DNA from: Bacteroidales bacterium
GTDB lineage: Bacteria; Bacteroidota; Bacteroidia; Bacteroidales; UBA12077
DNA: 64,000 nucleotides
Assembly (NCBI GenBank): GCA_013138975.1
Contig: WTBR01000027.1
Coordinates: 201 to 64,200, forward strand
Direction of reading: 5' to 3'
Position numbers and translations under genes: made by a program. The notes under the pieces were generated by a model that saw only the letters and a program-made list of their open reading frames with translations, ran no database searches and was not told where the DNA came from. The stretch's first letter is position 1. Each line of letters starts with the position of its first letter. Shown piece by piece: positions 10,202-27,900 of this stretch.

Positions 10202-12769
10202 CTAAATTTCGATTTCATCGTATTCGATTTTTCCTTGACTTACTGTATTCGTATATATTATTAAAGCAAGCATCCTAATTGTTGGATTTTTATAAACTTG
10301 TATATATGGTATTTTTATATTTAACTCCTTTTGAATCTGGTTGATCATAATTATAGCTTTAATTGAATGCCCTCCAATTTTAAAGAAATTCGATGTTATA
10401 CTTATATCTTCTTTTTTTATATTTAATAGTTCTGACCAAATTTCTACAAGTTTTTCTTCTGTATCATTTGAGGGGGCAATATAATCGTCACCTGCTTTTA
10501 CCTCTGGTAATGGCAGAGCTTTGCGATTTACCTTTCCATTGGGAGTTAGTGGTAAACTCTCCAATTCTACAAAATATGAAGGAATCATATTATAGGGAAG
10601 TTGCGATGATATATAAGCTCTTAACTCTTCTTGATTAAGTTCTTCTTTACAAACTACATATGCGCATAGGTACTTTTCATTGCTTTCTTCAATAGCAAGG
10701 ACTACACTCTCTTGTATATTTTCATGTTTTAATAAAGTACTCTCTATCTCTCCAAGCTCTATCCTAAAACCACGAATCTTTACTTGATGATCAATTCTGC
10801 CTAAAAATTCTATATTACCTTCTTTTGTCCACTTGCCTAAATCACCTGTGCGATACAATTTCTCTCCTTCTTTATAAGGATGATCTATGAATTTCTCTTG
10901 GGTTAAAATTTGATTTCCTAAATAACCTCGAGCTAAGCCAGCTCCACCAACACAAAGCTCTCCTGCTATACATACAGGTAAAGTCATATTGCATTTATCT
11001 AAAATATAAATTTGAACATTATCTACTGGTCTTCCTATTGATACTGTTAGGTTATTATCTTTTTCAAAATTATACTTATATATCATACATCCAACTACTG
11101 TTTCTGTTGGACCATATTCATTATATATCTCAATATTACCTTTATATTTATTATGAATTTCTTTAGCTAAATCAGTATTTAACTCTTCTCCACCCACAAT
11201 TAATCTTTTTATTCTTGAAACATTATTATTTTCTTTTAATAATTTCAAATGTGCAGGGGTTAGTTTTACAACATCAACTTTATTATCATTAAATACGTTC
11301 TCAATTACTAATTCATTTTCTTTTTCTTTATATATTATTACTTTATTTCCTGTAATTAAAGGAAGAAAGAGAGAAGTTACAGTTAAATCAAAAGATAATG
11401 ATGAATATAAAGGAAAATCAACCTTTTCACCTTTTATATATATTTTTGATGCCCAACACAAATAATTCACAACACCACTGTGAGTTATAAGAGTTCCTTT
11501 CGGTTTCCCTGTACTTCCAGAAGTATAAATTACATAGATTAAATCACTAATAGAATTTGTTATTTCTATATTTGACTTATTACCTTGGTATAGATTTTTA
11601 TCATTTAAATTTATTAGAAAAATATTTTTACAATCTTCTGCAATTTTTAAAAATGATTCCTGTGTTAATAAAATTTCAGCTTTACTATCTTTAAGTATAT
11701 ATCTTATGCGATCTTCTGGATAAGCCAGATCAATAGGCAAATAAGCTCCGCCTGCTTTTAAAATACCCATTATTCCAATAATCATTTCAAATGAACGATC
11801 AACCATGATACCAACAATTGTATCAGGCTTTACTCCTTTTGCTCTTAATAAGAGAGCTAATTGATTGGACCTTACATTCAATTCTTGAAAACTCATCCCT
11901 TCTTTTTCAAATACCAATGCAATATTATTTGGAGTTTTTTCTACTTGTTCTTCAAATAACTTATGAAGCATCTTATCTTTTGGATAATTAGAAGCAGTAT
12001 CATTAAATCCATACAGTAATTGATATTTTTCAGTCTCAGACAGAATATCTATTTTATCAATGTTTTTATTTGGATCTTTCAAAGAAAGGTTTAAAAGCCT
12101 CTCAAAATGTTTAAAGATCTGCTGAATATCTTCTTCAGTCTGAATATTTCTATTGTATTTAATATTACATTCTATATAATTTTCATGTCTTTCAAAGAAA
12201 AAGGTAAAATTATTATTAATATTTGTCAAAAAAATTTCATTCTGAATATTTTTAAGGAAAACGACAACATCGAATAAAGGGAAATTGCTATCATTATTAT
12301 CTATTTTCAACTCCCTTAATAAATTAACAATAGGATAATTAGAATGCTCGATTGCATTCTTAAGAAGAAATTGATTCTTAATTAGTAACTCTTTTAAAGT
12401 ATTTTTTCCATTCAATTCATTTTTTATTGGCAAAATCGTATTTATAAATTCACCTTCCTTTTCTTGATTTAAAATAGTAGTTCCAATTGTAATATCATTT
12501 AATTGAGAATACTTTCTCAATAGAACTACAACTTCAGTCATTAAAAATACTAACAACCTATTATCAGACCCCGAAGTAACTATCATAATTTTATTATAGA
12601 TATCTTCAGTGATTTTAAAATTCATTTCCTTAAGATTATTGTCTTTATTCTTATGTGATTCTAAATGTGAAAAATTACAAAATCCTGTTTTTTCTGAGAA
12701 TATATTCATCCAATATCTCTTTTCTTTACCATATTGAGTGGAGATTATATTTAATGCTTTATCATCCAT
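10202..12769 (-). CDS. NRPS subunit: half-C (C-terminal lobe only)-A(Asn-like code)-T
   Basis: 855-aa ORF. The N-terminal ~230 aa align with the post-HHxxxDG half of C domains (RYWMNIF..., DITIGTTIL, FINTILPIKN, PLFDVVV) but have no HHxxxDG. A motifs are LKAGGAYLPID, YVIYTSGSTGKPKGT (~11492-11540), NEYGPTE and GRIDHQVKIRGFRIELGEIE. The hand-read Stachelhaus code DLTKIGEVGK resembles Asn. T motif FFKIGGHSIKA (Ser 10364-10366). Confidence 0.9.
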   Translation of the reverse strand: MDDKALNIISTQYGKEKRYWMNIFSEKTGFCNFSHLESHKNKDNNLKEMNFKITEDIYNKIMIVTSGSDNRLLVFLMTEVVVLLRKYSQLNDITIGTTILNQEKEGEFINTILPIKNELNGKNTLKELLIKNQFLLKNAIEHSNYPIVNLLRELKIDNNDSNFPLFDVVVFLKNIQNEIFLTNINNNFTFFFERHENYIECNIKYNRNIQTEEDIQQIFKHFERLLNLSLKDPNKNIDKIDILSETEKYQLLYGFNDTASNYPKDKMLHKLFEEQVEKTPNNIALVFEKEGMSFQELNVRSNQLALLLRAKGVKPDTIVGIMVDRSFEMIIGIMGILKAGGAYLPIDLAYPEDRIRYILKDSKAEILLTQESFLKIAEDCKNIFLINLNDKNLYQGNKSNIEITNSISDLIYVIYTSGSTGKPKGTLITHSGVVNYLCWASKIYIKGEKVDFPLYSSLSFDLTVTSLFLPLITGNKVIIYKEKENELVIENVFNDNKVDVVKLTPAHLKLLKENNNVSRIKRLIVGGEELNTDLAKEIHNKYKGNIEIYNEYGPTETVVGCMIYKYNFEKDNNLTVSIGRPVDNVQIYILDKCNMTLPVCIAGELCVGGAGLARGYLGNQILTQEKFIDHPYKEGEKLYRTGDLGKWTKEGNIEFLGRIDHQVKIRGFRIELGEIESTLLKHENIQESVVLAIEESNEKYLCAYVVCKEELNQEELRAYISSQLPYNMIPSYFVELESLPLTPNGKVNRKALPLPEVKAGDDYIAPSNDTEEKLVEIWSELLNIKKEDISITSNFFKIGGHSIKAIIMINQIQKELNIKIPYIQVYKNPTIRMLALIIYTNTVSQGKIEYDEIEI
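12074..12769 (-). other. N-terminal truncated condensation domain (C-terminal lobe only, no active-site His motif)
   Basis: See the CDS entry above. Only 24 nt separate this start from the upstream stop, so the missing ~180-aa N-lobe cannot be hidden by a frameshift. Confidence 0.7.
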
Positions 12770-12793
12770 AACAAACCTTATCCTTTAATATTA

Positions 12794-14482
12794 TTAAACT
12801 AAATTAAAATCCCAATCTGTATCAAATAAATTGCTTGCTTTATTTATTATTTGCTTATTTCGACATTCCTTTACAACTGAATTTTCTTTTTCAAAATCAA
12901 TATAGCTTGGTACAGCATTTATATGAAGTTCTTTCCATCTCTTATCAGCATCAATTATTTCGTTCAATGAATAAGGATTAGGAATATTTAATTTCTTACA
13001 ATGTTCTATAAACCTGTTTACCCGACTATAAATTTCTTCTCTATTTGGTTCTGTATCAAGAAAATACGACTGCCCCAATAACATCTCTTTTTCATAATTA
13101 TCATATACTTCACCTATTTTGCCATTTTTTATAAAACTATCAGAACCAGACTGTCCAGTATACGAATAAATAAAGGGACAGCAATCTGCTTCATAAATAT
13201 CTTCACTTAATCTCTCTAACAGGTCCAGTGTCATTTGAAAATCTTCTTCAGTTTCACCAGGATAACCACAAATCCAATATGTTGTTGTTTTAACTCCTGC
13301 TTCAGCAAGGGATGAAATCGCAGATATTATTTCATCTATTTTTATTTTTTTATTCATTAAATCAAGTACTTTTTGAGAACCACTTTCAACTCCTATGCGT
13401 GCTCTGTAAAAACCACCCTTCCTCCATAAAAAAGAATTTTCAAGATAAGAACCATTCTTATCAACCCTAAGATACCCATCAAAATAAACAGGAGTATTTT
13501 CTTTAGCTATTTCTACTGACAGTTCCGTAATTATAGGATTTAAAAGTGAATCACACATAAGAAAAAGTTGATTCTTATGTGTTTTATACATTTCTTTTAA
13601 ATCATCTAGTACATGCTTTATATTCTTCGTTCTATATTTACCCTTATAAACTGTTTCAGAACAAAATTCACATTGCATATAACAGCTTCTTGAACCCTCA
13701 TAAGAATCTAACATGTAGAAAGATAAATCAAGATCAGAAAAATCAGGACTTTTCACATCAGAAATTGGAAATACCTCACCATCAAGATCTTTTATAGTAA
13801 AAACCCTTTTAGATTCAAGAAATTCATTTCTAAAATATTTCAATAACAATAATTCTGATTCACCTATAAAAATTTTATCAAAAATATCTTCTGTTTTTTT
13901 AAGAAAAAATTTAAAATTTGGAGAATTTAATGTCAAGTCTGAAAAAATTGAGCCTCCAATTAACGTCGTAATATAAGAAAATCTCTTTTTAATAATTCGA
14001 GCAGCAAAAAGAGAAGAAGGAAATGTATCATTGTAAACAGAAAATCCAATCGTTGTTGGTTTTTCTGTTTCAATTAAATCAATAATATATTTTTCAAAAT
14101 ATTCAAAATATTCTTTTATATAGTCATCGATTTCGTTAATTTGAAGATCATTCAATTTTGTAAAATAAGTCCTCCAAATTAACTTTCTTATTAAGTTTTT
14201 ATACCTTGCTTCATCTTTTCTATTAATAAAAGCCATCATATGATTTTTTAAAACATCATAGCCTATATTGAGAAAATTTCCTCTTTTTTGTTTTGGTATG
14301 ATTTTTTTTAAAAGCTCAAAATATAAGGAGATATACTCTTTTAGCTTTACATCAATATTTGCATCAACAATTCTAATATCATATCCATATTGTTTTAAAA
14401 AGCTTTTTAAAACTGAAATACCAGTCGGCGGTATCAATGTATCCCAAAAAGGTAACATTAAAAATATATTTTTTTCTTTCAA
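12794..14482 (-). CDS. B12-binding-domain-type (class B-like) radical SAM enzyme, stand-alone
   Basis: 562-aa ORF. N-terminal Rossmann/B12-binding-like region (FLMLPFWDTLIPPTGISVLKSFLKQYGYDIRIVDANI...TTIGFSVYND...TLIGGSIF...IFIGESELLL). CxxxCxxC motif SCYMQCEFC at 13661-13684. GFYRARIGVESGSQKVLDLMNK motif. About 45% identical by eye to the 563-aa paralogue at 23166-24857. The start in the ORF track is a TTG (14480-14482) preceded by AAAGGAG. Confidence 0.85.
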   Translation of the reverse strand: MKEKNIFLMLPFWDTLIPPTGISVLKSFLKQYGYDIRIVDANIDVKLKEYISLYFELLKKIIPKQKRGNFLNIGYDVLKNHMMAFINRKDEARYKNLIRKLIWRTYFTKLNDLQINEIDDYIKEYFEYFEKYIIDLIETEKPTTIGFSVYNDTFPSSLFAARIIKKRFSYITTLIGGSIFSDLTLNSPNFKFFLKKTEDIFDKIFIGESELLLLKYFRNEFLESKRVFTIKDLDGEVFPISDVKSPDFSDLDLSFYMLDSYEGSRSCYMQCEFCSETVYKGKYRTKNIKHVLDDLKEMYKTHKNQLFLMCDSLLNPIITELSVEIAKENTPVYFDGYLRVDKNGSYLENSFLWRKGGFYRARIGVESGSQKVLDLMNKKIKIDEIISAISSLAEAGVKTTTYWICGYPGETEEDFQMTLDLLERLSEDIYEADCCPFIYSYTGQSGSDSFIKNGKIGEVYDNYEKEMLLGQSYFLDTEPNREEIYSRVNRFIEHCKKLNIPNPYSLNEIIDADKRWKELHINAVPSYIDFEKENSVVKECRNKQIINKASNLFDTDWDFNLV

Positions 14483-14509
14483 AATACATCTCCTTTAAAA
14501 TTGATTATT

Positions 14510-17500
14510 CTATATATTAAAACCATCATCTAAATTTATATTGGTATTTACTTCTGTATACTTATGAGTAAATTTAATTTCTTCAAGCTTTCTATTTGGC
14601 GACTCAATAATTTTAGAAATTATTTCTTTTAAATAATAAGCATACTTTTCTATTGTTTGTTGCTTGAATAATTTAGAACAATAATCTATACTTATAAAAA
14701 GATTTTTCTCAAATTCCACACATGTAAATGTTATGTCAAAATGAACTTTAATTAGCTTTCCATAAATAAGTTCATCTGTATAATCATTTAATTGAGCTTG
14801 ATTTTGATTTAGAAAATTTATAATTACATCAAAAATGGGATTGTGACTTATATCTCGCTTTATCCCTAGTATATTTACTAAATCATCAAATTGATAATCC
14901 TGATTTTCAAAGGCTGAAATAGCTTTATTTCTAACATCCTTTAAGAATGAATCAAAACTTTTTTGCCCTTCAGGAAAATTTCGTAGAGGCAACATATTTA
15001 CAAACATTCCAATAACATTCTGCAAATCATTATGCCTCCTTCCACTAACACTCGTTCCTATAGTGATATCTTCTTGTCCACTCAGTTTAGATAAAAAAAT
15101 ATTAAATACTGCTAAAAGGACTATAAATAAAGTCGAATCACTTTCCCTTGCTATTTTGATAAGTTCTTTAGTTTCGTTTTCATTTAGGTAAAAACTTATA
15201 CTTGATCCTTCAAAATTTTGTACAACAGGTCGGACATAATCTGTAGGTAAGTTTAAACCTGAAAATTCTTTAACAAATTCATTTAACCAATACTCCTCCT
15301 GCTCCCTTATCTCAAATTGCTGTTTTTCTGTATTTTGCCATTCAGAATAGTCCTTATATTGTAGGTTTAAGGAGGGCAATTCTTCTCCTGAATACAATGA
15401 TTCAAATTCTTCCTTTAAGATTTTCTGCGAAGTTCCATCACTTATGATATGATGCATATCAATCATTAACAAGCTGTCTTCTCCTTTTATATCTACTATA
15501 GCTGCTCGTAAAAAAGGTGCTTTTGATAAATCAAAGGGCTTTATAAAATTATTTCGTGTGGTTTCAATTTCTGTGCTTTCTATACTTAGTTCTTCAAACT
15601 CAAACTCAACATCCCTACTTATAAGCTGAACAGCCTCACCATCAACTATAATTATGCTTGTACGGAAACTCTCATGACGATTTATTAGTTGTTTGAATAC
15701 TTCTTCTATTTTTAGCTTATCTGCCTCTTTTCCCAATGAAATTATAATGGGCATATTGTAGGCGGTTGAGGTCAAATCAATCTGCTGTAATAAGTATATC
15801 CGCTTTTGAGCAGAAGACATACTATAATTTGTCTTTTTTTCTGTCTTTAAAACTGATATAAAGAGCTTTTCATCACTTGATTTTATGTAATTAGCCTGCT
15901 GTTTGATTGTTCCATTTAGAAAAATATCTTTAAGCGAAAATTCTACTCCAATTTCTTTATGAATTGAACCCACTAATAAAATAGCTTTTAAAGAATGACC
16001 ACCTAAATTAAAAAAATTAGATGTCACACTAATTTCTTCTTGTGCTATATTTAATACTTTTGACCAAATTTCTGCGAGTTTCTCTTCTATTTCATTTGAT
16101 GGTTTTATATAATCTTCTCCAGCTTTTATTTCAGGAGTGGGTAATTTTTGTCGATCGACTTTTCCGTGATTAGTTAAAGGTAAGCCATCCATCTCAACAA
16201 AATATGAAGGGATCATATAATACGGTAAAGATTCTAGTAAATACTCACGAAGTTTTTCTTGATTAAAATTTTCTGCACATACTAAATATGCACAAAGAAA
16301 CTTATCATCATTTTCTTCCATGGCTAATACAATGCATTCTTTTACATTATTGAAACTGAGTAAGACATTTTCAATTTCTCCCAGTTCTATCCTGAAACCA
16401 CGAATTTTCACTTGCTCATCCACTCTTCCAATATATTCAATATTACCATCTGGTAACCATCTTGCCAAATCTCCTGTTCTATAAATTCTCTCGTTGTTCT
16501 TAAATGGATTTAAAATGAATTTTTCATTATCTAGTTCTGACTTGTTCATATATCCTCGTGCCAAACCAATGCCTCCTATACATAATTCACCGATAACTCC
16601 AATAGCAGATAACTTTAGATTTTTTGATAATATGTATATGGCTGTATTGTCTATTGGTTTACCTATAGGAATAGTCCTGCTTTTATCAACATCTTTACAA
16701 TCATAATATGTAACATCTATGGTTGCTTCGGTTGGACCATATAAATTTGAAATATTAATTTGTTTATTAAATTTGAATAATTCATTGAACTTCAACACAT
16801 CTTCTTTTCTTAATGCTTCTCCACTGCATATTACATGTCTAAGAAATAATAATTCCTCTGTATTATTTCCAAAATCTGATTCCAATACAATCAAAAACGT
16901 TTTTAACATAGATGGAACAAAATGAATTATTGAAACTTTACTATCAGCAATTGCTTTTATAATTTTTCTAGGTTCTTTTTCAGCTTCTGGTTCCAGTAAT
17001 ATTAATTTCGATCCACATATTGCCCATAATAACAATTCCCATACTGAAACATCAAATGTATATGGAGTTTTTTGGATAAAAATATCATCAGAAGAAACAT
17101 TATAGTAGTTCTTCATCCAACTTAACCTGTTAACCAATGACCGGCTCTCAATCATGGCTCCCTTGGGTCTGCCTGTGGTTCCAGATGTGTATATTATATA
17201 TTCTAATCTATTCCTTGTTGTTTGTTTACTATCTTTCTTAATATTAATATTTTCTTTATGCTCTATTTCATTTTCCAAGTATAAAGTATCAACTTTTATA
17301 ATAATACCTTTTGAATCCTTTTGGGTTGTAAGTAAAATTTCAGACTTACAGTCATTTAGAATATAATTAATTCTGTCTTTTGGATCTTTTGGTGAAATTG
17401 GTAAATAGACCCCTCCAGCTTTTAAAATTCCGAAAATCCCTACTAGCATTTCAATAGATCTATTTACCATTATTGGAACTACTTTATTTTCCTTTACACC

Positions 17501-19024
17501 CTTATTTATTAATACTGATGCTAGTAAATCTGTTTTCAATGCAAATTCGTGGTAAGTTAATTTAATACCATTAAACTCTAGAGCTTCATAATATGGATTT
17601 ACATTTACCTGATCGTCAAATAAATCAATTATATTTTTTACTTTTGAAATATCCTTTTCTGTATTATTGAATTCATATAACAATCGTTGTTTCTCGCTCT
17701 CTGTAATAAAATCAATATTTTGAATTTTGCAATTTACATCGTTGACAATCTTTTTAATTACAGCCTTTAATTGAGAAGCAAGGCTTTCTATAAACTCAGT
17801 ATTATAGTATTTTAAATCGTAATTAAATCTAATCTTATAATTTTTACCTGGAACTATTGCTATCCAAAAATTATAATTAGTTTGCTCATAAGTCTTAATC
17901 TTATTAGCTCTTAAATCAAAATCGGCTTTGTTTTCTTGCAGATATTCATTATTAATAATTGGATAATTTTCATATACCATAATATGATTAATGAATTCTC
18001 CTTTAACATTAGAATATGTCTTTATTTCTGATAAAAGAAGATATTCATATGCTTTTGCATCATTACTTTTTGCTTGATTCTCTAATAATACCTCTAAAAA
18101 TGTTTGATCATTGTTTGACTTTACTCTACATGGAATAGTATTAATACATAAACCAACCATCCTTTCTATTCCTTTTATTTCTGATGGCCTACCAGACACA
18201 ACAACTCCAAAAACCACGTCATTAGTATTATTATAGTTTTGTAAAACTATACCCCAAAGACTTTGGAAAAAAGTATTTGTCGTAACACTATTCTCTTTTG
18301 CAATCTTTTCTATTTCTAGTGAATATTGTTCATCTAATTCAAGAGTTATTTCTTTAGGGTTTAAAGGTTCGTTAGTATCATTATTCTTTAAAAGGGGCAA
18401 ATTCCCAACACCCTCATATCCATTCAGATAATCTTTCCAAAAATTTAATCCATTTTGCTTATTTTGTTTTCCAATCCAATCAATAAAATTAGAATATGGA
18501 ACAACATTGGATAAATTTAATTTAATAGATTTTTTTAAAGAATAGTATATTTGAAATAACTCCTGAAGTATTAATCCTAAGCACCATCCATCCATTATAA
18601 TATGATGAAATTCTAATATAATCCAATAAGATTCATTTTCTTTTTGAATTACTGTTAACTGAAACAATATATCCTTAGATAAATCAAATCCTATATTTCT
18701 GTTTTCACAACTATATTTATGCAGTTCTTGCTTCTTTTTTTCTATATGCAATTTTGAAAAATCTACAAACTTAACATCAAGACTGCGTTCTTTAACTACA
18801 ACCTGTATTGGTTTCTCTACATCCTGATATATAAAAACAGTCCTAAAAATATCATATCGTTCAATTAATTTATTATAACTTATATTTATTAAATTGATAT
18901 CTAATTCACCATTTAGCTCATAAACTGTTTGTTCAAAATATGCCTGGCTATTAGGATCCTCAATATGATGAAATAGCATCCCTAATTGCAGTGGGGACAA
19001 AGGATATATTTTTTTTATTTCCAT
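14510..19024 (-). CDS. NRPS subunit: C(DCL-type)-A(Ser-like code)-T-C(LCL-type)
   Basis: 1504-aa ORF. The N-terminus MEIKKIYPLSPLQLGMLFHH resembles a COM acceptor. C1 EFHHIIMDGWC (HH 18602-18607). A motifs YIIYTSGTTGRPKGA (~17160-17200), FDVSVWE, IIHFVPSML, VICSGEAL and NLYGPTEATIDV give the code DVWHISLIDK (Ser-like). T FFNLGGHSLKA (Ser 15992-15994). C2 MHHIISDGTS (HH 15449-15454). The protein ends ...NLDDGFNI. Confidence 0.92.
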   Translation of the reverse strand: MEIKKIYPLSPLQLGMLFHHIEDPNSQAYFEQTVYELNGELDINLINISYNKLIERYDIFRTVFIYQDVEKPIQVVVKERSLDVKFVDFSKLHIEKKKQELHKYSCENRNIGFDLSKDILFQLTVIQKENESYWIILEFHHIIMDGWCLGLILQELFQIYYSLKKSIKLNLSNVVPYSNFIDWIGKQNKQNGLNFWKDYLNGYEGVGNLPLLKNNDTNEPLNPKEITLELDEQYSLEIEKIAKENSVTTNTFFQSLWGIVLQNYNNTNDVVFGVVVSGRPSEIKGIERMVGLCINTIPCRVKSNNDQTFLEVLLENQAKSNDAKAYEYLLLSEIKTYSNVKGEFINHIMVYENYPIINNEYLQENKADFDLRANKIKTYEQTNYNFWIAIVPGKNYKIRFNYDLKYYNTEFIESLASQLKAVIKKIVNDVNCKIQNIDFITESEKQRLLYEFNNTEKDISKVKNIIDLFDDQVNVNPYYEALEFNGIKLTYHEFALKTDLLASVLINKGVKENKVVPIMVNRSIEMLVGIFGILKAGGVYLPISPKDPKDRINYILNDCKSEILLTTQKDSKGIIIKVDTLYLENEIEHKENINIKKDSKQTTRNRLEYIIYTSGTTGRPKGAMIESRSLVNRLSWMKNYYNVSSDDIFIQKTPYTFDVSVWELLLWAICGSKLILLEPEAEKEPRKIIKAIADSKVSIIHFVPSMLKTFLIVLESDFGNNTEELLFLRHVICSGEALRKEDVLKFNELFKFNKQINISNLYGPTEATIDVTYYDCKDVDKSRTIPIGKPIDNTAIYILSKNLKLSAIGVIGELCIGGIGLARGYMNKSELDNEKFILNPFKNNERIYRTGDLARWLPDGNIEYIGRVDEQVKIRGFRIELGEIENVLLSFNNVKECIVLAMEENDDKFLCAYLVCAENFNQEKLREYLLESLPYYMIPSYFVEMDGLPLTNHGKVDRQKLPTPEIKAGEDYIKPSNEIEEKLAEIWSKVLNIAQEEISVTSNFFNLGGHSLKAILLVGSIHKEIGVEFSLKDIFLNGTIKQQANYIKSSDEKLFISVLKTEKKTNYSMSSAQKRIYLLQQIDLTSTAYNMPIIISLGKEADKLKIEEVFKQLINRHESFRTSIIIVDGEAVQLISRDVEFEFEELSIESTEIETTRNNFIKPFDLSKAPFLRAAIVDIKGEDSLLMIDMHHIISDGTSQKILKEEFESLYSGEELPSLNLQYKDYSEWQNTEKQQFEIREQEEYWLNEFVKEFSGLNLPTDYVRPVVQNFEGSSISFYLNENETKELIKIARESDSTLFIVLLAVFNIFLSKLSGQEDITIGTSVSGRRHNDLQNVIGMFVNMLPLRNFPEGQKSFDSFLKDVRNKAISAFENQDYQFDDLVNILGIKRDISHNPIFDVIINFLNQNQAQLNDYTDELIYGKLIKVHFDITFTCVEFEKNLFISIDYCSKLFKQQTIEKYAYYLKEIISKIIESPNRKLEEIKFTHKYTEVNTNINLDDGFNI

Positions 19025-19043
19025 GGTAGAATTATTTATATAT

Positions 19044-22000
19044 TTAAATTTTATTTATAAGATTTTCAATCTGACCTAATTCTTCAATTGATAAATCATT
19101 ATATCCAACATCATTTGGTGTTATTTCTATTTTATCTTTATTACAACAATGATCAATAATTTCGATTAATGATTTTTCAAATTCTTTAGAAAGTCTTTTA
19201 ATCGTTTCTTTTTTGAACTCCAAGCCATTGAACTCCATTGAAAATGTAAAAACACCATTCATTAAAATACTGTTAATTTCCAATAAACCATTTCTTTCAC
19301 ATTCATCAGATATCTTTTTCCCAGAATCAATTTTCGAAATAGTAATGTCCTCCTTTGTTAATTCTTTAGAAAACTCCCCTAAATAATTGAAATTAATTTG
19401 AGGTTGATTATTAAAACTAACTTCCCGGTCCTTTGATGTTAAATATTGAAGTATTCCATAACCTATACCCTTATTAGGAATTTTTCTTAATGTTTCCTTA
19501 ATAAATTTAATATTATATGATAAATCAGAATTTTCAACATCCAATACAACAGGATATTGAGAAGTAAACCAACCAACTGTGCGTGAGACATTTACTTCTT
19601 TTAAAATATCTTCTCGACCATGACCTTCCAGGCTAATCAGAACCTTATTTATTTTTTGCCATTTTTTAATAGCTAACGCTAATGCTGTAAGCAATATATC
19701 GTTTATTTCTGTATTATATGCCTTGTTTACTTTGTACAATAACTTATCTGTATATTCTTTATTAATTTTAAGATATTCTACAGAAGTATTTTTTCTTTTA
19801 TTATCTATTTTTTCAATCTTGAAATCTGACACTAATTCCCTTGTATTTGTTTCGTCAATTTTTTTCCAGTAGTCCAGTTCTTCCAAAAGTTCATTACTAT
19901 TAGCGTAATCATTAAGTCTTTCTGACCAATATTTAAACGAATCAGTTTTATGTTTAAGTTTAATTTCTTTGTTTTGCAAAGCTAATTCATAAGCAGTAGT
20001 AAAATCTTCTATTATAATCCTCCATGAAACACTATCTATTACGCTATGATGAATTGTAATTAACACATGATCACCTTCCTTTACATTGAAAAGTCCTACT
20101 TTAACTAGAGGGCCGTTTTCTAAATCAATTGATTTCTGAATCATGTCACATTCTTTTTCAATCAATTCAACATGATCTTTCTTATCAGTAAAATCAAATG
20201 TATATAGATCGTAAAATGGTTCTAAAACAGGTCTATTATATTGTATAGTTTTATTGTTTTGTTTTGGGAAAATCATTCTTAAAGCATCATGGTGTTTAAC
20301 AATTGTGTCAAATGTTTTTTTCAAAGCTGGAATATTAATTTTATCCTTAGTAAAAAACATCACAGACTGATTAAAGTGATTAATATCAGTTAAAAAATTA
20401 TTGAAATACCAATACGTTACAGGGGTAAATAATACTTCTCCTTCTATAGTATCTTGAGGAATTATCCTATCAATTTTTGTTACAATGTCTTTTAATTCTG
20501 ATATTCTAGGATGGACAAACATATCTTTAATTTCTAACTTTAAACCCAGTTCCTGAGCATTACTAGAAATTTGTATTGCCTTTATTGAATCACCACCAAT
20601 CATGAAAAAATTATCATTAATTCCTATTCTTTCAACGTTCAATACTTTTTGATATATATCTACTAATATTCTCTCAGTCTCATCTCTTGGAGCTATATAA
20701 TCCTCAGAAGCTAATATTTCCGGTTCTGGTAACGCTCTCCTGTTCACTTTACCACTTTCTGTAAAAGGGATACTATCAATTTTGACAAAATAAATTGGTA
20801 TCATATAATCTGGCAAACTCTTTGAAAGATGTTCTTTTATTTCATGAAAAGATAACTCCTCTAATGAAACATAGTATGTACATAGGTATTTATCTTCGTT
20901 TAAATGTGTGCGTTCAATAACTATTGCATCATCAATTTTAGGATGATTTATTAAACACAATTCTACTTCTCTTAATTCAATCCTAAATCCCCTTATTTTT
21001 ACTTGTTGATCTTTTCTGTTAACAAACTCAATATTTCCATCAGGCAACCATTTTGCAATATCCCCTGTTTTATATAATCTTTCGTTTATTTCAAAATTAT
21101 TTGGAATAAATCTTTGATTAGTAAGTTCAATATCATTTAAATATTTCCTTGCTAATCCCACACCAGAGATGCATAATTCACCTTCTATTCCAATGGGTTG
21201 TAATCTTCCATTATTATTTAAAATATAAACTTTTTTATTTTCAATTGGTTTCCCAATTACTGGAGTTTTGGATGGATGTGAAGTAGGTAGTAATTCAGCA
21301 AATGTTGTCCAAACAGTATCTTCAGTTGGACCATACAGATTATATATTTTAAATGGATATTCTCTTAATGGATTTCTTCTAAAACAATCTCCTGCTGCCC
21401 TTATAGCTTTCAATGAAGATCTTTTCCCACTCCATTCATCCTCGAGTAATTTTTCGACCATATAAGTAGGTTGATATGAGATATTTACATGATTTTTAAT
21501 TAGCCACTTTTTCATTTTAAAAGGATCTTTCTGAATTTCATCATTTGCGATACACAAATTTCCCCCAGAAGTCAAACAAGGCCATATTTCAAATGACATA
21601 GCATCAAAACTGCAACTGGAAACCTGACTCATCCTTGAATTATGATCATTTTTAAAAATCCTTTTGTGGGATTGCACCATATTTACACATCCTTTATTTT
21701 CAATCAGAACTCCTTTAGGTTTTCCTGTTGAACCTGATGTGTAAATTATATATAACAAAGATTCAGGTTTATTATCATTATTGCCATTTTCTTTAAATTT
21801 GTTTTGAAATTCTAAGTCTTCAAATAAAAGAGTATCTTTATTAACAGAACCAGTTAAGTATTGATTTTCTGTAATTAAGATCTTTGCATCACTGTCATTT
21901 AAAATAAATTCTATTCTTTTTTCCGGATAATTTTTATCAATTGTTAAATAAGCTCCGCCAGCTTTTATGGTTCCAAGAATACTAACCAGCATATCTATAG

Positions 22001-22997
22001 ATCTATCTAATAAAATAGCTACAATAGATTCAGATTTTATTCCCTTTTCGCTTAAAATATTAGCTAATTGATTTGTTCTTTTATTTAATTCAGAAAATGT
22101 AATCTTCAAATCTCCATATTCGCAAGCAATTCTTTCTGGGTTTTTGGAAACCTGTTCATTAAATAATTCAATAATTGTTTTATCTGGAATATTGCAGTTT
22201 AATGTACCACTAAAATCATTTAAAACCTTGCTTTTTTCATTATCAGATAATAAATCTACTTCCGAAATTTTAACATCCAAATTAAATATAACTTGCTCCA
22301 ATAATCTATTAAAATGGCCTATTATTCTTTTAATTGTGCTTCTCTCATATAAAGATGAATTATATGAAAATTCTCCATATAACTCATTCCCTCTATTACT
22401 GAATATCAATTTAGTATTTAGTATTATATCTTTAAGATATTTCTCCTCATGAATATTTGAAAGTAATAATGCATTTGAAAATAATGGAAACTCTTTCTCA
22501 TTTGTAGAAAGATCTAATTTATATAATAATGAATCTATAGAGTAATTTTGATTTTCTATGTCCTTTATAAAATCTTCTCGCACCTTCAATAGAAACTCCT
22601 TAAACGTTAATTCTAAATTTATTTTATTTCGAAGTGCCAAAATAGTATTAACAAAATCACCATCAATATCTTGTTTCAAAACAGTTGTACCTATAATAAT
22701 ATCATTATTCGATGTATATTTCTCGATTAAAATATTCATTCCTGCCAATAATATCATATAAAGTCTAAAATCAGAATTATTGCTCAACTTAACTAACCTT
22801 TCATAAACTTCTCCTCCAATAACTAATGTTTCAATTTCTATTTGAGGATCAGTCTTCTTTTCTATCTTAAAATCATACGGGAAATATGATTTTGTTAGTT
22901 CTCCTGAAAACTTATTTAACCAATATTTTTCTTCTTTTGATCGATTATAAGTGTTGTTATTCTTATCTTCTAAATTATCTTTTTTCGCCATTTTCAA
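19044..22997 (-). CDS. NRPS subunit: half-C-A(unassigned code)-T-E
   Basis: 1317-aa ORF (the ATG two codons downstream of the TTG is an equally plausible start). N-terminal C-lobe only (EKYWLNKFSGEL..., DIIIGTTVL, FVNTILALRN, ENQNYS, PLFSNALL). A motifs IKAGGAYLTID and YIIYTSGSTGKPKGV (~21715-21760). T FFMIGGDSIKAIQ (Ser 20586-20588). E ITIHHSVIDSVSWRI (HH 20046-20051). The C-terminal tail ...LSIEELGQIENLINKI resembles a COM donor. Confidence 0.92.
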   Translation of the reverse strand: MKMAKKDNLEDKNNNTYNRSKEEKYWLNKFSGELTKSYFPYDFKIEKKTDPQIEIETLVIGGEVYERLVKLSNNSDFRLYMILLAGMNILIEKYTSNNDIIIGTTVLKQDIDGDFVNTILALRNKINLELTFKEFLLKVREDFIKDIENQNYSIDSLLYKLDLSTNEKEFPLFSNALLLSNIHEEKYLKDIILNTKLIFSNRGNELYGEFSYNSSLYERSTIKRIIGHFNRLLEQVIFNLDVKISEVDLLSDNEKSKVLNDFSGTLNCNIPDKTIIELFNEQVSKNPERIACEYGDLKITFSELNKRTNQLANILSEKGIKSESIVAILLDRSIDMLVSILGTIKAGGAYLTIDKNYPEKRIEFILNDSDAKILITENQYLTGSVNKDTLLFEDLEFQNKFKENGNNDNKPESLLYIIYTSGSTGKPKGVLIENKGCVNMVQSHKRIFKNDHNSRMSQVSSCSFDAMSFEIWPCLTSGGNLCIANDEIQKDPFKMKKWLIKNHVNISYQPTYMVEKLLEDEWSGKRSSLKAIRAAGDCFRRNPLREYPFKIYNLYGPTEDTVWTTFAELLPTSHPSKTPVIGKPIENKKVYILNNNGRLQPIGIEGELCISGVGLARKYLNDIELTNQRFIPNNFEINERLYKTGDIAKWLPDGNIEFVNRKDQQVKIRGFRIELREVELCLINHPKIDDAIVIERTHLNEDKYLCTYYVSLEELSFHEIKEHLSKSLPDYMIPIYFVKIDSIPFTESGKVNRRALPEPEILASEDYIAPRDETERILVDIYQKVLNVERIGINDNFFMIGGDSIKAIQISSNAQELGLKLEIKDMFVHPRISELKDIVTKIDRIIPQDTIEGEVLFTPVTYWYFNNFLTDINHFNQSVMFFTKDKINIPALKKTFDTIVKHHDALRMIFPKQNNKTIQYNRPVLEPFYDLYTFDFTDKKDHVELIEKECDMIQKSIDLENGPLVKVGLFNVKEGDHVLITIHHSVIDSVSWRIIIEDFTTAYELALQNKEIKLKHKTDSFKYWSERLNDYANSNELLEELDYWKKIDETNTRELVSDFKIEKIDNKRKNTSVEYLKINKEYTDKLLYKVNKAYNTEINDILLTALALAIKKWQKINKVLISLEGHGREDILKEVNVSRTVGWFTSQYPVVLDVENSDLSYNIKFIKETLRKIPNKGIGYGILQYLTSKDREVSFNNQPQINFNYLGEFSKELTKEDITISKIDSGKKISDECERNGLLEINSILMNGVFTFSMEFNGLEFKKETIKRLSKEFEKSLIEIIDHCCNKDKIEITPNDVGYNDLSIEELGQIENLINKI
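22278..22997 (-). other. N-terminal truncated condensation domain (C-terminal lobe only)
   Basis: Aligns with the region from the (E)YWL motif onward of full C domains in this window (for example C2 of the 1504-aa subunit: EEYWLNEF...DITIGTSVSGR...FVNMLPLRN...ENQDYQFDDL...PIFDV). No HHxxxDG. The upstream intergenic gap is only 168 nt. Confidence 0.7.
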
Positions 22998-23165
22998 TAC
23001 TTTTTTATGTGCAGTTTCTTTAAAAAAATGTTTTCGAGTTATAATTGTTTAGCTCTTTTACAATCTTTTATTTAATAGAATATTATAGTTATAATATCAA
23101 TTAAAACAACCTGCTTGTTGATATATTTGTGCTAACTCAATTTTGATGAAATTTCAGAATTATTA

Positions 23166-24857
23166 TTAGAAACTAAAATCACCTTCATCCAATAAAGTTG
23201 ATTTTAAACTACAAATTTCTTTAAACTCTTTATTTTCAGAAATTATGTCATTTCTATTTTGGAAATCGATTAATGAAGGAACAGCATTTTTATGTAATTT
23301 CATCCATCTTTCATCTGCAAATTGAATCTCATACAATGAATAAGGGTTAGGTATTCCAATATTTTTACAGTGTTCAACAAACCTTGAAACTCTATCATAT
23401 GTTTCCTTTCGAGACGGTTCACAATTTATAGTCCAAGATTCCATCATTAACATATCCTTTGCTTCTGCCGGATAAAGCAATTTTCTTTGTTTAACCCATT
23501 TTACTGAATCTGCTTGTCCCGTATATGCAAATATAAATGGGTTGCACTCTGTTTCCCAGATATAATTTCTCATTTCCGAAACAAAATCTAAGGTTTGTTG
23601 AAAATCTTTCTCTGTTTCTCCGGGGTGTCCTATGACTATATATGCAGTAGTTTTAATTCCAGCTTTTGCGAGAGCAGATAGGGTTCTTTTTGATTGTTCA
23701 ACTGTAATATTCTTCCCCATAAGATCAAGAACATTTTGAGAGCCACTTTCAATTCCAATTCTAGCGCGATAAAAACCCCCTTTTCTCCACTTAAGTGTAT
23801 TTTCAATTTTGCCACTCTCATCATCAACCCTTAAATAACCATCATAATATAACGATACATTCCTTGATATAAATTCTTTTGCCAAATCATCAATAATTGG
23901 ATTTAACAATGCATCATTCATGAAAAACATTTGATGCCCATACTTTTCATATAATTCAACCATTTCATCTACAGTTTGATCGACTGGTTTCTTTGTATAC
24001 TTTCCGTAAAATGTTGCTACATTACAAAAACTACATTGAAAAGGACAACTAGATGATCCTTGCGCTGCTAAATACGTATAATTTTGTCTGACATTGAAAT
24101 TACTCATATCCGGAAAATTCTCAAGAGACTCGTTTAGTTCTTTTTCACATATATCATTTAATGTAAAAACTTTCCGATCGTTAGGCAACTCTCCATTTAA
24201 TAATTTTAAGAATAAACCTTCACCTTTTCCAATTAAGATATTATCTATAAAAGGAGTTTTATCTATAAAATTCTTAAAATTGGGGGTGTCTTTGATTAGA
24301 TGATCCGAAAAGATACTTCCGCCCATTACGGTCATTATATTTGGATTTTTTTCCTTTATTAGTTTAAATATATATAATGATGGTGCAATTGTATCACGCA
24401 ATACAGAGATTCCCAATACATCAGGATTAAATTCATAAAATATTTTTAAAAAATAACTTTCTAATTGTTCAAAAAACTCATCTAGAATATTTTTTAATTC
24501 ATATAGAAATGATTCATCATTTTTGTAATAAAAGGTGTTAAATATTATAAGATCCAATAATTTGATATATTCGGTTTCATCAACATAATTAATATGAGCC
24601 ATCATATGATCTCTCATTACATTATGACCTAAATTATATAAATTACTAAGATTGTACTCAGGTATTGCATTTTTTAAGGTATTAAAATACCTGTCGTATA
24701 TTGATTTAAATTGACTCTCAATATTTGCATCTATTGTATAGACTGAGTGTCCATTTTTTTCGAGAGCACTTTTTAAATATGTAATTCCCTGTGGTGGAAT
24801 TAATGGTGTCCAGTATGGCAGTAAACCAAGCAGTACCTTCTTTTTATTATGTAACAT
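23166..24857 (-). CDS. B12-binding-domain-type (class B-like) radical SAM enzyme, stand-alone
   Basis: 563-aa ORF. N-terminal B12-binding-like region (VLLGLLPYWTPLIPPQGITYLKSALEKNGHSVYTIDANI...PDVLGISVLRD...TVMGGSIF...ILIGKGEGLFLKLL). CxxxCxxC motif SCPFQCSFC at 24024-24047. GFYRARIGIESGSQNVLDLMGK motif. Paralogue of 12794-14482. Confidence 0.85.
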   Translation of the reverse strand: MLHNKKKVLLGLLPYWTPLIPPQGITYLKSALEKNGHSVYTIDANIESQFKSIYDRYFNTLKNAIPEYNLSNLYNLGHNVMRDHMMAHINYVDETEYIKLLDLIIFNTFYYKNDESFLYELKNILDEFFEQLESYFLKIFYEFNPDVLGISVLRDTIAPSLYIFKLIKEKNPNIMTVMGGSIFSDHLIKDTPNFKNFIDKTPFIDNILIGKGEGLFLKLLNGELPNDRKVFTLNDICEKELNESLENFPDMSNFNVRQNYTYLAAQGSSSCPFQCSFCNVATFYGKYTKKPVDQTVDEMVELYEKYGHQMFFMNDALLNPIIDDLAKEFISRNVSLYYDGYLRVDDESGKIENTLKWRKGGFYRARIGIESGSQNVLDLMGKNITVEQSKRTLSALAKAGIKTTAYIVIGHPGETEKDFQQTLDFVSEMRNYIWETECNPFIFAYTGQADSVKWVKQRKLLYPAEAKDMLMMESWTINCEPSRKETYDRVSRFVEHCKNIGIPNPYSLYEIQFADERWMKLHKNAVPSLIDFQNRNDIISENKEFKEICSLKSTLLDEGDFSF

Positions 24858-24958: not shown

Positions 24959-27900
24959 TTAAAATTGAAATTCACCAAATAATTCTGTAGAGTTTTTTAC
25001 AATTATATCTTTCCGATGTTGACCTATTTTTAAATCTCCGATTGTATCTGATTTTTCTTCAATAATTTGCCTTGATATTTCAATAAAATATTTTAACAAA
25101 TTTTCTGCTGTTTCTATTTTATAAAGACTTGTAAAATACAATAGATTTAATAATATTTCATCCTTAAACTCTTGAACCCTAAACAATAAACTAAAATCAG
25201 CTTTTTTAATTTCCTTTCTAAGATCCATATTGTTTGATGAAAATTGAAGATCACGTGTTTTCGTACTTATATTATTAAATTCTAATACAATACCAAATAA
25301 CGAATCTTTATACATCTTTCCCTGCTTTCGTAATTTCACAATTAGTTCATCTAACGGATATTCCTGATTATCGTATAATTCAACAAGCTTATTATTTACT
25401 TCATTTAAGTAATTTATTATCTTTTTATCATATTTTGGATTAGTCCTTACGGGTAATATATTAACAAAATATCCAACTATATTTAGTAACTCCACAGATC
25501 TTCTTCCATTAACTACAGAACCAATAATTATATCCTCTTCTTGAGTTAATACATGAAACATCAGCTTGCACACTCCCAGAAAAAAGGAACTCAAACTAAT
25601 ATTTCTTAGTCTTACAAAAGACCTAATTTTTGATGTCAAATCTTTATCTATAAAATTTTCAACTAACTCATTTTTTAAAAAATGATTCTTTTTATCAAGA
25701 ATATCAGGTTTCAGATTTAAGACATTACTATTTTCTTTCAATTCACTCAACCAATATTTTTCCTGCTCTAAAATCCTATTCTTAAACAATATACTATGTT
25801 GCATTTCCGAATAATCTTTATATTGGTATTTTAATAAGTTTAATTTTTCTTTTTGTAATAGTTTATATAAGTCGTTAATAAGAATTGTAATTGAAACGGC
25901 ATCTGTTATAATATGATGAATATCAATCAATAATTGCATCTTGTTATTTTCATCTTTTAGAACACCTAATCTAACTAGAGGAGCCTTATCTAATTCAAAT
26001 GGTCGTATAAATTTTACTAAAATTTCATCAAGCGAATTATTCTTATCCTTTTTATATTTTTCAATATTTATATCTATATTTTCTGATATTTTCTGATATA
26101 TTTTCCCATTTAAATTAATAAAACTAGTTCTTAATATTTCATGTCTTAATATTAATTTATTAAATACACCTTTTAAAATATTTAAGTCAATGTCAGAATC
26201 AATTACAATTCTATCAAATATGTTATATTTTAAGCTAGCTTTATCAAACTGCTGAACAACGTACAATCTCTTTTGTGCAGATGACAAGGAATAATACTCT
26301 TTTTTCTCTGTAAAATAATATTGTGATTTTATTTTTCTTTTTTGTTTTACAATAAATAAAGACATTTTTTCAATTGTTTGCATGTTAAAAACATCTTTAT
26401 ATGAAATTTCCACTTGTAACTTTTTATATATTGCGGAAATTAAAATTGTAGCATTTAAAGAATTACCCCCTACATCAAAAAAATTATCTGTAGTTCCTAT
26501 TTTTTCTATAGAAATCTCTAATACTTCTGACCAAATTGATGTCAACTGTTTTTCGATATATGTTGAAGGTTCTTTATAATCAGAATCCAAATTGACCAAT
26601 GGATATGGAAGAGCCTTTTTATCAATCTTTCCATTTGATGTTAAAGGTAATTTTTCTAATTCAATAAATTTAGACGGAATCATATAATTTGGCAGCTTTG
26701 TTCCCAAATATAATTTAAACTCTGAGATCCCTATTTCGTCAAACTTATTTCTAACGTAGTATGCACATAAATATTTATTTCCGAATTGATCTTCATTTAC
26801 TGTAACAACTGATTCATTAACTCCTACATATTTTTCTATAAAGCTTTCAATTTCACTTAATTCAATTCTATTCCCTCGAATTTTCACCTGATCATCTACC
26901 CTTCCTACATATTCAATATTTCCATCGGGTAACCATCTTGCTAAATCACCTGTTCTATAAATTCTTTCTTCATTCTTATGCGGATTTAAAATAAATTTTT
27001 CATTGTCCAGCTCTGATTTATTCATGTATCCTCTTGCTAAGCCAATTCCTCCTATATATAATTCCCCAATAACTCCGACAGCACATAACTTCAGGTTATT
27101 TGATAATATATATATTTCTGTATTATCTATCGGTTTACCTATAGGAACTGTCCTATTTTTATCAACATTGTTACAATTGAAATAAGTAACATCGATAGTT
27201 GCTTCAGTTGGACCATATAAATTAGAAATGTTTAATTGCTGATTACTTTTGAATAAGTCATTGAATTTCAGTACATCTTCTTTCTTTAATGCTTCCCCAC
27301 TGCATATTACATGTTTTAAAGTTAATAGTTTGTCTATATTCTTTTCCAGATCCGATTCAATAACATTTAAAAATATCTTGAGCATTGATGGTACAAAATG
27401 AATAATTGAAACCCTGTTGTTGGCAATTGCTTTAATTATTTTACTTGGTTCTTTTTCTGCATCCGGCTCCAAAATTCCTAATTTCGCTCCGCATATTGCC
27501 CATAAATACAGTTCCCACACCGACACATCAAAAGTATAAGGAGTTTTTTGAATAAATATATCCTCGGAAGAAACATTGTAATAATTTTTCATCCAATTTA
27601 ACCTGTTGGATAATGACCGACTATCAATCATCACTCCTTTAGGTCTACCAGTTGTTCCTGAAGTATAAATTATGTATTCTAATCTATTATTTTGTGTATT
27701 ATTATTATCTATTTTAAAATTTCTAATTACTTTACTTTCAATTTCATTTTCCAAGTATATCAGATCAATATTTGAGTTAAAGTCATTCGAATCTTCTTTT
27801 GTTGTAAGTAAAACATCAGCCCCACTATCTTGTAGAATATATTTAATCCTTTCTTCGGGATCTTTTGGTGAAATTGGTAAATATGCCCCCCCTGCTTTTA

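Follow-up and report, generated by a model that had tools for sequence, protein, structure and literature searches.

Tailoring in trans of residues held on the carriers of nonribosomal peptide synthetases (NRPSs) is well studied for oxygen-dependent enzymes that are recruited by inactive domains of the condensation (C) type. Recruiters of this kind are the X domain in glycopeptide NRPSs and the interface (I) domain in siderophore NRPSs; each is a full-length C-like domain that lies within a single polypeptide, and the oxygenases that they bring in, P450s and Fe/2-oxoglutarate hydroxylases, depend on O2. To our knowledge, the route to comparable modifications in anaerobes is largely unknown. 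Here we analyze a stretch of 64,000 nucleotides from a Bacteroidales bacterium (lineage UBA12077; GenBank assembly GCA_013138975.1, contig WTBR01000027.1, positions 201 to 64,200 of the forward strand; the whole stretch is called the window below), in which two stand-alone genes for radical S-adenosylmethionine (SAM) enzymes, R1 and R2, each lie between NRPS subunits at a point where a module is split.

PMC12230676 cites Reitz 2019 for inactive C-type domains as recruiters of trans-acting oxygenases. The majority of characterized class-B radical SAM enzymes are methylases, and two of the cobalamin (B12) enzymes, CysS and TokK, work on pantetheine-linked substrates (PMC12846815), so their fold is able to take a substrate bound to a carrier arm. 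DscE, from discodermin biosynthesis, is a B12-dependent radical SAM C-methyltransferase encoded with an NRPS, a combination termed unusual (PMC12858407).

At the junctions described here, the upstream subunit ends in a complete C domain and the downstream subunit begins with the C-terminal lobe of one (half-C), followed by adenylation (A) and thiolation (T) domains; the upstream subunit and the radical SAM protein carry the same type of C-terminal tail. On balance we favor a mechanism in which the half-C-A-T subunit is the docking site of this tail, and the radical SAM enzyme and then the C domain serve the same T-bound residue, the radical SAM step being a likely C-methylation.

Results

Radical SAM genes sit at split-module junctions across phyla

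All open reading frames (ORFs) of at least 150 amino acids in the window (12/12) lie on the minus strand and together make up one long NRPS operon with ~27% GC. Domain calls with Pfam and with profiles made from the window's own domains gave the minus-strand order [..T-C] - radical SAM (563 residues) - [half-C-A-T-E] - [C-A-T-C] - radical SAM (562 residues) - [half-C-A-T], where E denotes an epimerization domain. A preliminary description, made from the sequence alone, had given this order, with the radical SAM genes at split-module junctions, and was correct on every point checked. The upstream subunits N3, N5, and N7 end in complete C domains (motifs in Table 1), the downstream subunits start with a catalytically empty C-lobe followed by A-T, and the Asn-like specificity code of the half-C subunit N8, DLTKIGEVG, was read again. 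Likewise, the third half-C subunit, N4, has no radical SAM gene before it at its C/half-C junction with N3 and carries a methyltransferase (MT) inside its A domain.

Within the window, the chance that two radical SAM genes both fall within the three C/half-C junctions among eight NRPS-NRPS junctions is ~0.1, so the significance of the arrangement rests on a cross-genome survey. One genome per species was scanned, yielding 78 loci, mostly on contigs of metagenome-assembled genomes, in which all plus-strand ORFs, taken from stop to stop, were annotated with the profiles. Among the 79 distinct stand-alone radical SAM homologs with at least 1.2 kb of downstream DNA, 71 (90%) have a half-C at the start of an ORF downstream; this ORF is the immediate next gene in 62 and comes after one or two intervening genes in nine. 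Directly upstream, 62 of the 77 homologs with enough upstream DNA have an NRPS ORF with a complete C domain at its end. The hosts belong to at least eight phyla (Acidobacteriota/Aminicenantes, Clostridia and other Bacillota, Bacteroidota, Omnitrophota, KSB1, Desulfobacterota, SAR324, and Pseudomonadota). Three genomic contexts inspected individually have the same neighbors. One locus belongs to Ruminiclostridium cellobioparum DSM 1351 (L043, NZ_JHYD01000045.1), a strain in culture, and reads T-C / radical SAM / half-C-A-T..., with ..VIDEGDFNF as the upstream tail. The combination of a radical SAM gene with a split module is no local accident; it is strongly conserved, and the synteny seen in the window recurs in related clusters.

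The half-C domains form a family of their own

The three half-Cs of the window cover positions ~183-448 of the 448-position C profile. They begin right after the HHxxxDG site and lack this motif; they are thus not two-lobed C domains with an N-lobe HHxxxDG, and they retain the residues at the core of the C-terminal lobe. In 85 of 93 half-Cs, scores against the other half-Cs have a median above the best score against the C-terminal lobe of any full C domain from the same loci, and alignment comparison reveals signature residues of their own on top of the conserved lobe core. Random truncation or a pseudogene origin was rejected because the half-Cs form a coherent family. A word-indexed homolog search with the N8 half-C alone as the query returned only two matches.

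The HHxxxD motif is kept by 67 of 74 tail-bearing terminal C domains, compared to 125 of 133 other C/E domains. Inactivity of the upstream terminal C domain was also considered and rejected, since its motif is mostly intact. Judged by this motif, the terminal C domains presumably catalyze condensation for the split modules.

C-ending subunits and junction enzymes share a C-terminal tail

C-ending subunits extend 17-22 residues beyond the C domain to an acidic-aromatic end, typically ..DDGDFGF-COOH, and the radical SAM proteins end alike (Table 1). Counted as [DEGNS][FWY]x[FLIV] inside the last six residues, the tail motif is present in 60/65 C-ending subunits before a radical SAM gene and in 17/21 before a half-C, as well as in 64/65 radical SAM proteins before a half-C. 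As controls, subunits that precede a full C domain have the motif in 0/7 (E-ending) and 1/19 (T-ending) cases. A stricter version of the motif occurs in 158 of 261 NRPS or radical SAM ORFs; among the remaining plus-strand ORFs 8 of 207 have it, and among minus-strand ORFs none of 334. In a structural model of R1 the tail is disordered, as expected of a docking peptide.

All eight carriers that are neither NRPS nor radical SAM proteins are encoded by extra genes located at this junction. Five belong to the Peptidase_U32 family (Cys-rich, ~395-400 residues, ..DFxF tail), with genes between the radical SAM gene and the half-C ORF; the other three are tailed PP-loop ATPase-like proteins (~365-420 residues) with an SGGVDSS motif and N-terminal CxxC pairs. 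The U32 family includes the oxygen-independent hydroxylases UbiU/V, TrhP, and RlhA (PMC11574389), and the junction proteins may be oxygen-independent oxidases recruited via the same tail route. However, they lack the CX6CX15CX3C spacing of canonical U32 oxidases and have other Cys clusters instead.

In the related loci, 21 half-C ORFs come directly after a C-ending subunit with no radical SAM gene; in about half of them the A-to-T span is normal (~500 residues), which leaves no room for an embedded domain. The preliminary description had linked all three half-C modules of the window to a methylation-type catalyst. This is true of the window, where R1, R2, and the MT of N4 supply one each; as a general rule it fails, given these 21 ORFs, about half of them without an A-domain insert, and the U32-family and PP-loop non-methylases at other junctions.

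The same 21 ORFs, of which 17 still follow a tailed subunit, are what would be expected if the half-C were a structural remnant that stabilizes the A domain, as part of a canonical C-A platform, after the gene split. The tail would then be an ordinary docking tag for C/half-C pairs, and the radical SAM genes would have landed in permissive intergenic sites, their tails copied by chance or recombination. Cooperation of C and A domains for efficient activity, reported for microcystin NRPS modules (10.1101/2023.11.13.566838), also speaks for such a remnant. Against this account, enzymes of three unrelated families (B12-dependent radical SAM, U32-family, and PP-loop) all bear the tail at the same junction; moreover, 64/65 radical SAM proteins have kept it and the half-C has its own conserved signature. 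We consider the remnant account very improbable and favor the tail as a docking element that also serves the tailoring enzymes.

R1 is predicted to fold as a cobalamin-type radical SAM enzyme

R1 and R2 are paralogs with 43% identity. Both score well above the PF04055 cut-off of 29.5 bits (77.6 for R1, 61.4 for R2), which places them in the radical SAM superfamily, and both contain a CxxxCxxC motif (CPFQCSFC, residues 271-278, in R1; CYMQCEFC, residues 267-274, in R2), whose cysteines C271, C275, and C278 are invariant across 38 homologs. PF02310, the B12-binding family, matches R1 with 44.2 bits and R2 with 31.5 bits, just under the cut-off of 32.1.

An AlphaFold2 model of R1 (mean predicted local distance difference test score, pLDDT, 89.8; predicted template modeling score 0.89) is disordered in its tail residues 550-563 and has a helical insert of ~100 residues in the B12-binding Rossmann domain. 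The best PDB folds are those of the B12-dependent radical SAM enzymes MgmA, OxsB, TsrM, CysS, and TokK (E-values 1e-10 to 4e-14), with template modeling (TM) scores of 0.47-0.58 and 11-17% identity; a sequence search of the PDB gave only weak matches, to TokK and MgmA. OxsB and AprD4, which are both non-methylases, are among the best structural matches. By this modeled fold, R1 appears to be a class-B (cobalamin-type) radical SAM protein in which the B12-binding domain precedes the radical SAM core. The top NCBIfam match of R1 is BchE, and C-methylases of ribosomally made peptides with post-translational modifications (RiPPs; TIGR03975) are among the best family matches.

More than 1300 homologs of R1 were found at E-values ≤ 1e-10; identity among the best 120 is 50-58%, and their length is ~560 residues. 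An exhaustive profile search of the R1 family returned 1236 representatives (50%-identity clusters) at E-values ≤ 1e-30. R1 and R2 belong to a large uncharacterized cobalamin-type radical SAM family tied to the NRPS lines of anaerobes.

Natural fusions join the radical SAM protein to the half-C

In three proteins, a radical SAM domain of the R1 family is fused straight onto half-C-A-(A)-T: P0250 (2077 residues) and P0253 (1377 residues), both from the exhaustive representative search, and one ORF of locus L073. In all three a short linker replaces the tail and enters the half-C start motif K-E-R-x-Y/F-W, while the NRPS subunit upstream of the L073 fusion retains its tail. An AlphaFold2 model of P0253 residues 1-794 is confident for the radical SAM part; its half-C has a pLDDT <50, MAFFT having put half-C rows on the radical SAM domain. 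A readthrough pseudo-fusion of R2 and N8 was ruled out by three in-frame stops.

A sister clade (P0279-P0319, ~1100-1230 residues) combines the radical SAM part with a C-like region of ~650 residues, which has a variant H-R-x-x-x-D motif followed by a lobe resembling the half-C; these proteins, too, have ..F-x-F at their end. By eye, one of them (P0303) appears to have an extra TauD-like C-terminal domain. P0248 (915 residues) has a PP-loop domain fused at the N terminus of an R1-family radical SAM protein.

The pairing of radical SAM genes with split modules, as proposed in the preliminary description, is real and is backed by the common tail and the natural fusions. At the level of sequence, conserved pairing, tail, and fusions agree with the further suggestion that the split would give trans-acting enzymes access to the T-bound unit. 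DscE demonstrates a different possibility: although part of an NRPS cluster, it methylates free discodermin in vitro (PMC12858407). R1 and R2 could similarly tailor the finished, released peptide, with their gene positions reflecting operon packing or cassette inheritance, and the RiPP C-methylases among the best family matches would suit such a role. The fixed C/half-C position (90%, across phyla), the fusions to half-C-A-T, and a tail that is the same specific tail as that of the NRPS subunit that must dock there weaken this explanation, as does the presence of two paralogs beside two different modules in one cluster. We regard action on the released peptide as quite improbable and prefer action at the split module.

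Partner modules and embedded tailoring domains

The A domain of N8 has the Asn-like code given above, and that of N6 an unassigned one (DAFYRALVW). Across the survey, A domains partnered with radical SAM genes have diverse codes (Asn-, Gln-, Glu-, Asp-, Phe-, Tyr-, and Ile-like, plus several unassigned), and no Gly, Ser, or Thr codes were found among the partnered modules surveyed. This range is compatible with chemistry at a side-chain CH2 or CH near the backbone, without proving it.

Tailoring domains are also found in cis. The A domain of N3 is interrupted by a B12-dependent radical SAM domain that belongs to a different family from R1 and R2 and is circularly permuted, with the radical SAM core (CPYKCTYC) first and the B12-binding part after it, and is ~21% identical to R1/R2; a second interruption places an MT inside AMP-binding_C (residues ~1504-1853). 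By its sequence, the embedded radical SAM domain is best seen as the cis counterpart of the trans-acting R1 and R2. It occupies the same site between motifs A2 and A3 as the MT of N4, which suggests equivalent roles. The architecture half-C-A(radical SAM)-T-C recurs in at least 10 related loci (e.g. L038, L048, L049, L054, L066, and L068). No description of an A-domain-embedded B12-dependent radical SAM domain was found in the literature searched, most subscription journals lying outside the search.

These features also bear on the nature of the reaction. Recruitment could proceed as we propose and yet lead to another radical chemistry, such as rearrangement, C-C or C-X bond formation, epimerization, or dehydrogenation, acting either on the residue while it is carrier-bound or, once condensation has taken place, on the peptidyl chain. 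The non-methylases among the best structural matches (OxsB and AprD4), BchE at the top of the NCBIfam list, the diversity of the partner amino acids, and a sister clade fused to C-like domains all point in this direction, and no curated methylase threshold is reached. On the other side, the characterized class-B enzymes are mostly methylases (PMC12846815), the insertion site shared by the N4 MT and the N3 radical SAM domain hints at equal roles, and N6 already owns an E domain. A chemistry other than methylation seems unlikely to us, although we find it the most credible of the alternatives; we retain C-methylation of the T-bound residue as the favored reaction.

Other features of the window

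Two types of junction coexist in the operon. T-ends (N1, N2, and N8) are followed by a TubC_N-type dock before a full C domain, at the N termini of N2 (52690), N3 (46223), and N9 (10138), and DFxF-tailed C-ends are followed by a half-C subunit. The A domain of N9 (protein residues 527-1307) is degenerate, lacking a YTSGSTG-type A3 motif, and contains an inserted PF00698 acyltransferase (residues 838-1123); the C-terminal C domain of N9 (residues 2011-2447) has HQxxxDA where HHxxxDG is expected. No thioesterase is present in the window.

Table 1. Subunits, domains, and enzymes of the window (window coordinates) and tailed extra genes at junctions of related loci (locus coordinates).
Feature	Position	Strand	Description
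N1	52687-63948	-	A-T-C-A-T-C-A-T-C-A-T
N2	46220-52690	-	TubC-type dock, then C-A-T-C-A-T
N3	37479-46223	-	dock, C, A interrupted by B12-radical SAM and MT, then T-E-C; tail ..SDSNFSF
N3 embedded B12-radical SAM	42759..44282	-	residues 648-1155, between motifs A2 and A3
N3 terminal C and tail	37482..38849	-	HHILMDG; ..SDSNFSF
N4	32662-37398	-	half-C, MT-interrupted A, then T-E; next after N3
N4 half-C	36652..37398	-	third C/half-C junction
N4 MT insert in A	35476-36258	-	residues 381-641, between motifs A2 and A3
N5	24959-32632	-	C-A-T-C-A-T-C; tail ..FGEFQF
N5 terminal complete C and 21-residue tail	24962..26299	-	C = residues 2112-2536; HHIITDA; ..STELFGEFQF
R1	23166-24857	-	stand-alone radical SAM, 563 residues; B12-binding and Radical_SAM; tail ..LLDEGDFSF
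N6	19044-22997	-	half-C (C-profile 183-440), then A-T-E
N6 half-C	22230..22997	-	residues 1-256; C-terminal lobe only, no HHxxxDG
N6 A, T, E	19104..22163	-	code DAFYRALVW
N7	14510-19024	-	C-A-T-C; tail ..DDGFNI
N7 terminal complete C and tail	14513..15835	-	HHIISDG; ..NINLDDGFNI
R2	12794-14482	-	stand-alone radical SAM, 562 residues; tail ..DTDWDFNLV
N8	10202-12769	-	half-C (C-profile 184-440), then A-T
N8 half-C	12014..12769	-	residues 1-252
N8 A, T	10265..11956	-	code DLTKIGEVG, Asn-like
N9	2795-10138	-	dock, C, degenerate A that holds an acyltransferase, then T-E-C
X	271-2643	-	MacB/FtsX-type permease
U32-family junction gene	L012:11703-12905		
U32-family junction gene	L029:11798-12979		
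U32-family junction gene	L058:11763-12953		
U32-family junction gene	L075:11650-12855		
U32-family junction gene	L076:11678-12865		
PP-loop junction gene	L047:8725-9987		
PP-loop junction gene	L052:3850-4998		
PP-loop junction gene	L055:11725-12813		

Discussion

In the mechanism that we favor, the catalytic C domain would close the upstream subunit, and the half-C-A-T subunit would be the landing platform for both this C domain and the tailoring enzymes. The tail common to the C-ending subunit, the radical SAM protein, and the other junction enzymes would dock most probably on the half-C, because the half-C alone sets these subunits apart. The radical SAM enzyme would first modify the aminoacyl-S-T unit, which would be Asn-like on N8 and is unassigned on N6, most likely by adding a methyl group to an unactivated carbon, C-beta for instance. 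The upstream C domain would then condense the modified T-bound residue.

A more general proposal, which we put forward tentatively, is that the half-C-A-T platform and the ..D-F-x-F-COOH tail, acting as an entry ticket, might constitute a previously undescribed NRPS docking code in anaerobes of many phyla, by which the upstream C domain and a changeable set of O2-independent enzymes take turns on a single carrier-bound amino acid. That this changeable set comprises B12-radical SAM, U32-family oxidase-like, and PP-loop ATPase-like enzymes is conceivable and is offered with the same reserve.

Several points weigh against the favored mechanism. Compared with curated methylase subfamilies (PhpK, the RiPP family rSAM_ocin_1, KedN5, HpnR, the MCR Gln methylase, and others), neither R1 nor R2 qualifies for any curated B12-radical SAM subfamily, their best NCBIfam scores being 89-110 bits against cut-offs of 282-600; since their identity to solved enzymes is likewise low (11-17%), methylation enters our argument as a prior and not as a result. 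Docking of the tail on the half-C, the carrier-bound substrate, methylation, and the order of events are all steps that we infer. The surveyed loci were picked via their radical SAM genes, and the survey is silent on half-C modules elsewhere. About one-fifth of the half-C ORFs have no preceding radical SAM gene, so the split occurs without an adjacent tailoring gene. Fusions were absent from the best 120 matches that a word-indexed search with an L073 junction query listed from a set of 5.8 billion proteins, none of which covered both halves (coverage at most 59%); because fusions are rare and metagenome-derived predictions, we use them as supporting evidence only. Finally, radical SAM relatedness and partner A code correlate with a Spearman coefficient of 0.08, and nearest neighbors share a code in 25/54 cases versus 8% of random pairs; whole-cassette inheritance may explain this link, and we therefore do not use it for substrate specificity.

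If the mechanism is true, a half-C start together with a ..DFxF tail flags a tailored module and its enzyme in at least several dozen orphan clusters of uncultivated phyla, and the pair would predict which residue of an uncharacterized peptide is modified. It would also explain why modules are split at the C/A boundary, which is the boundary used by engineered exchange units. The tail and half-C would be a portable docking pair that can be transplanted for engineering, and more than 1000 uncharacterized B12-radical SAM enzymes, with their U32-type and PP-loop partners, would become accessible to functional study.

In the literature searched, which left most subscription journals outside, we found no description of a B12-radical SAM family tied to split NRPS modules, of a half-C start used in this way, or of the tail. 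The nearest enzymes are CysS, of cystobactamid biosynthesis, and TokK. Both resemble R1 in the B12 Rossmann domain and radical SAM core (TM 0.47-0.52), act on substrates attached to a pantetheinyl arm, the state that a T-bound residue would also be in (PMC12846815), and are encoded in NRPS or related clusters. However, they are only 11-16% identical to R1, the ~100-residue helical insert and the docking-type tail are features of R1/R2, and a half-C partner, a fixed junction position, or a common tail has not been described for them. DscE, too, is a B12-radical SAM enzyme within an NRPS cluster, but it acts on the released peptide in vitro, and no split module, half-C, or tail has been reported for it (PMC12858407).

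Interrupted A domains with an embedded MT at the A2-A3 or A8-A9 site are the counterparts of N4 (MT) and N3 (B12-radical SAM and MT), where tailoring is in cis; R1 and R2, in contrast, are separate proteins. The docking peptides that partner TubC-type domains are likewise flexible C-terminal peptides that pair subunits, and TubC_N domains are found at the T/C junctions of this very cluster. The present tail differs from them in having another motif, in following a C rather than a T domain, in pairing with half-C subunits that lack TubC_N, and in being borne by tailoring enzymes as well.

The closest parallel in principle is that with the X and I domains. As in those systems, a dead C-family domain, here the half-C, lies directly beside the module that would be tailored in trans. 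In contrast to X and I, only the C-terminal lobe is present, and it forms the N terminus of another subunit; one type of C-terminal tail is common to the C-subunit and the enzymes; and the recruits are oxygen-independent. The principle of recruitment by a dead C-family domain is thus already known, and what is new are the parts and the oxygen-independent enzymes.

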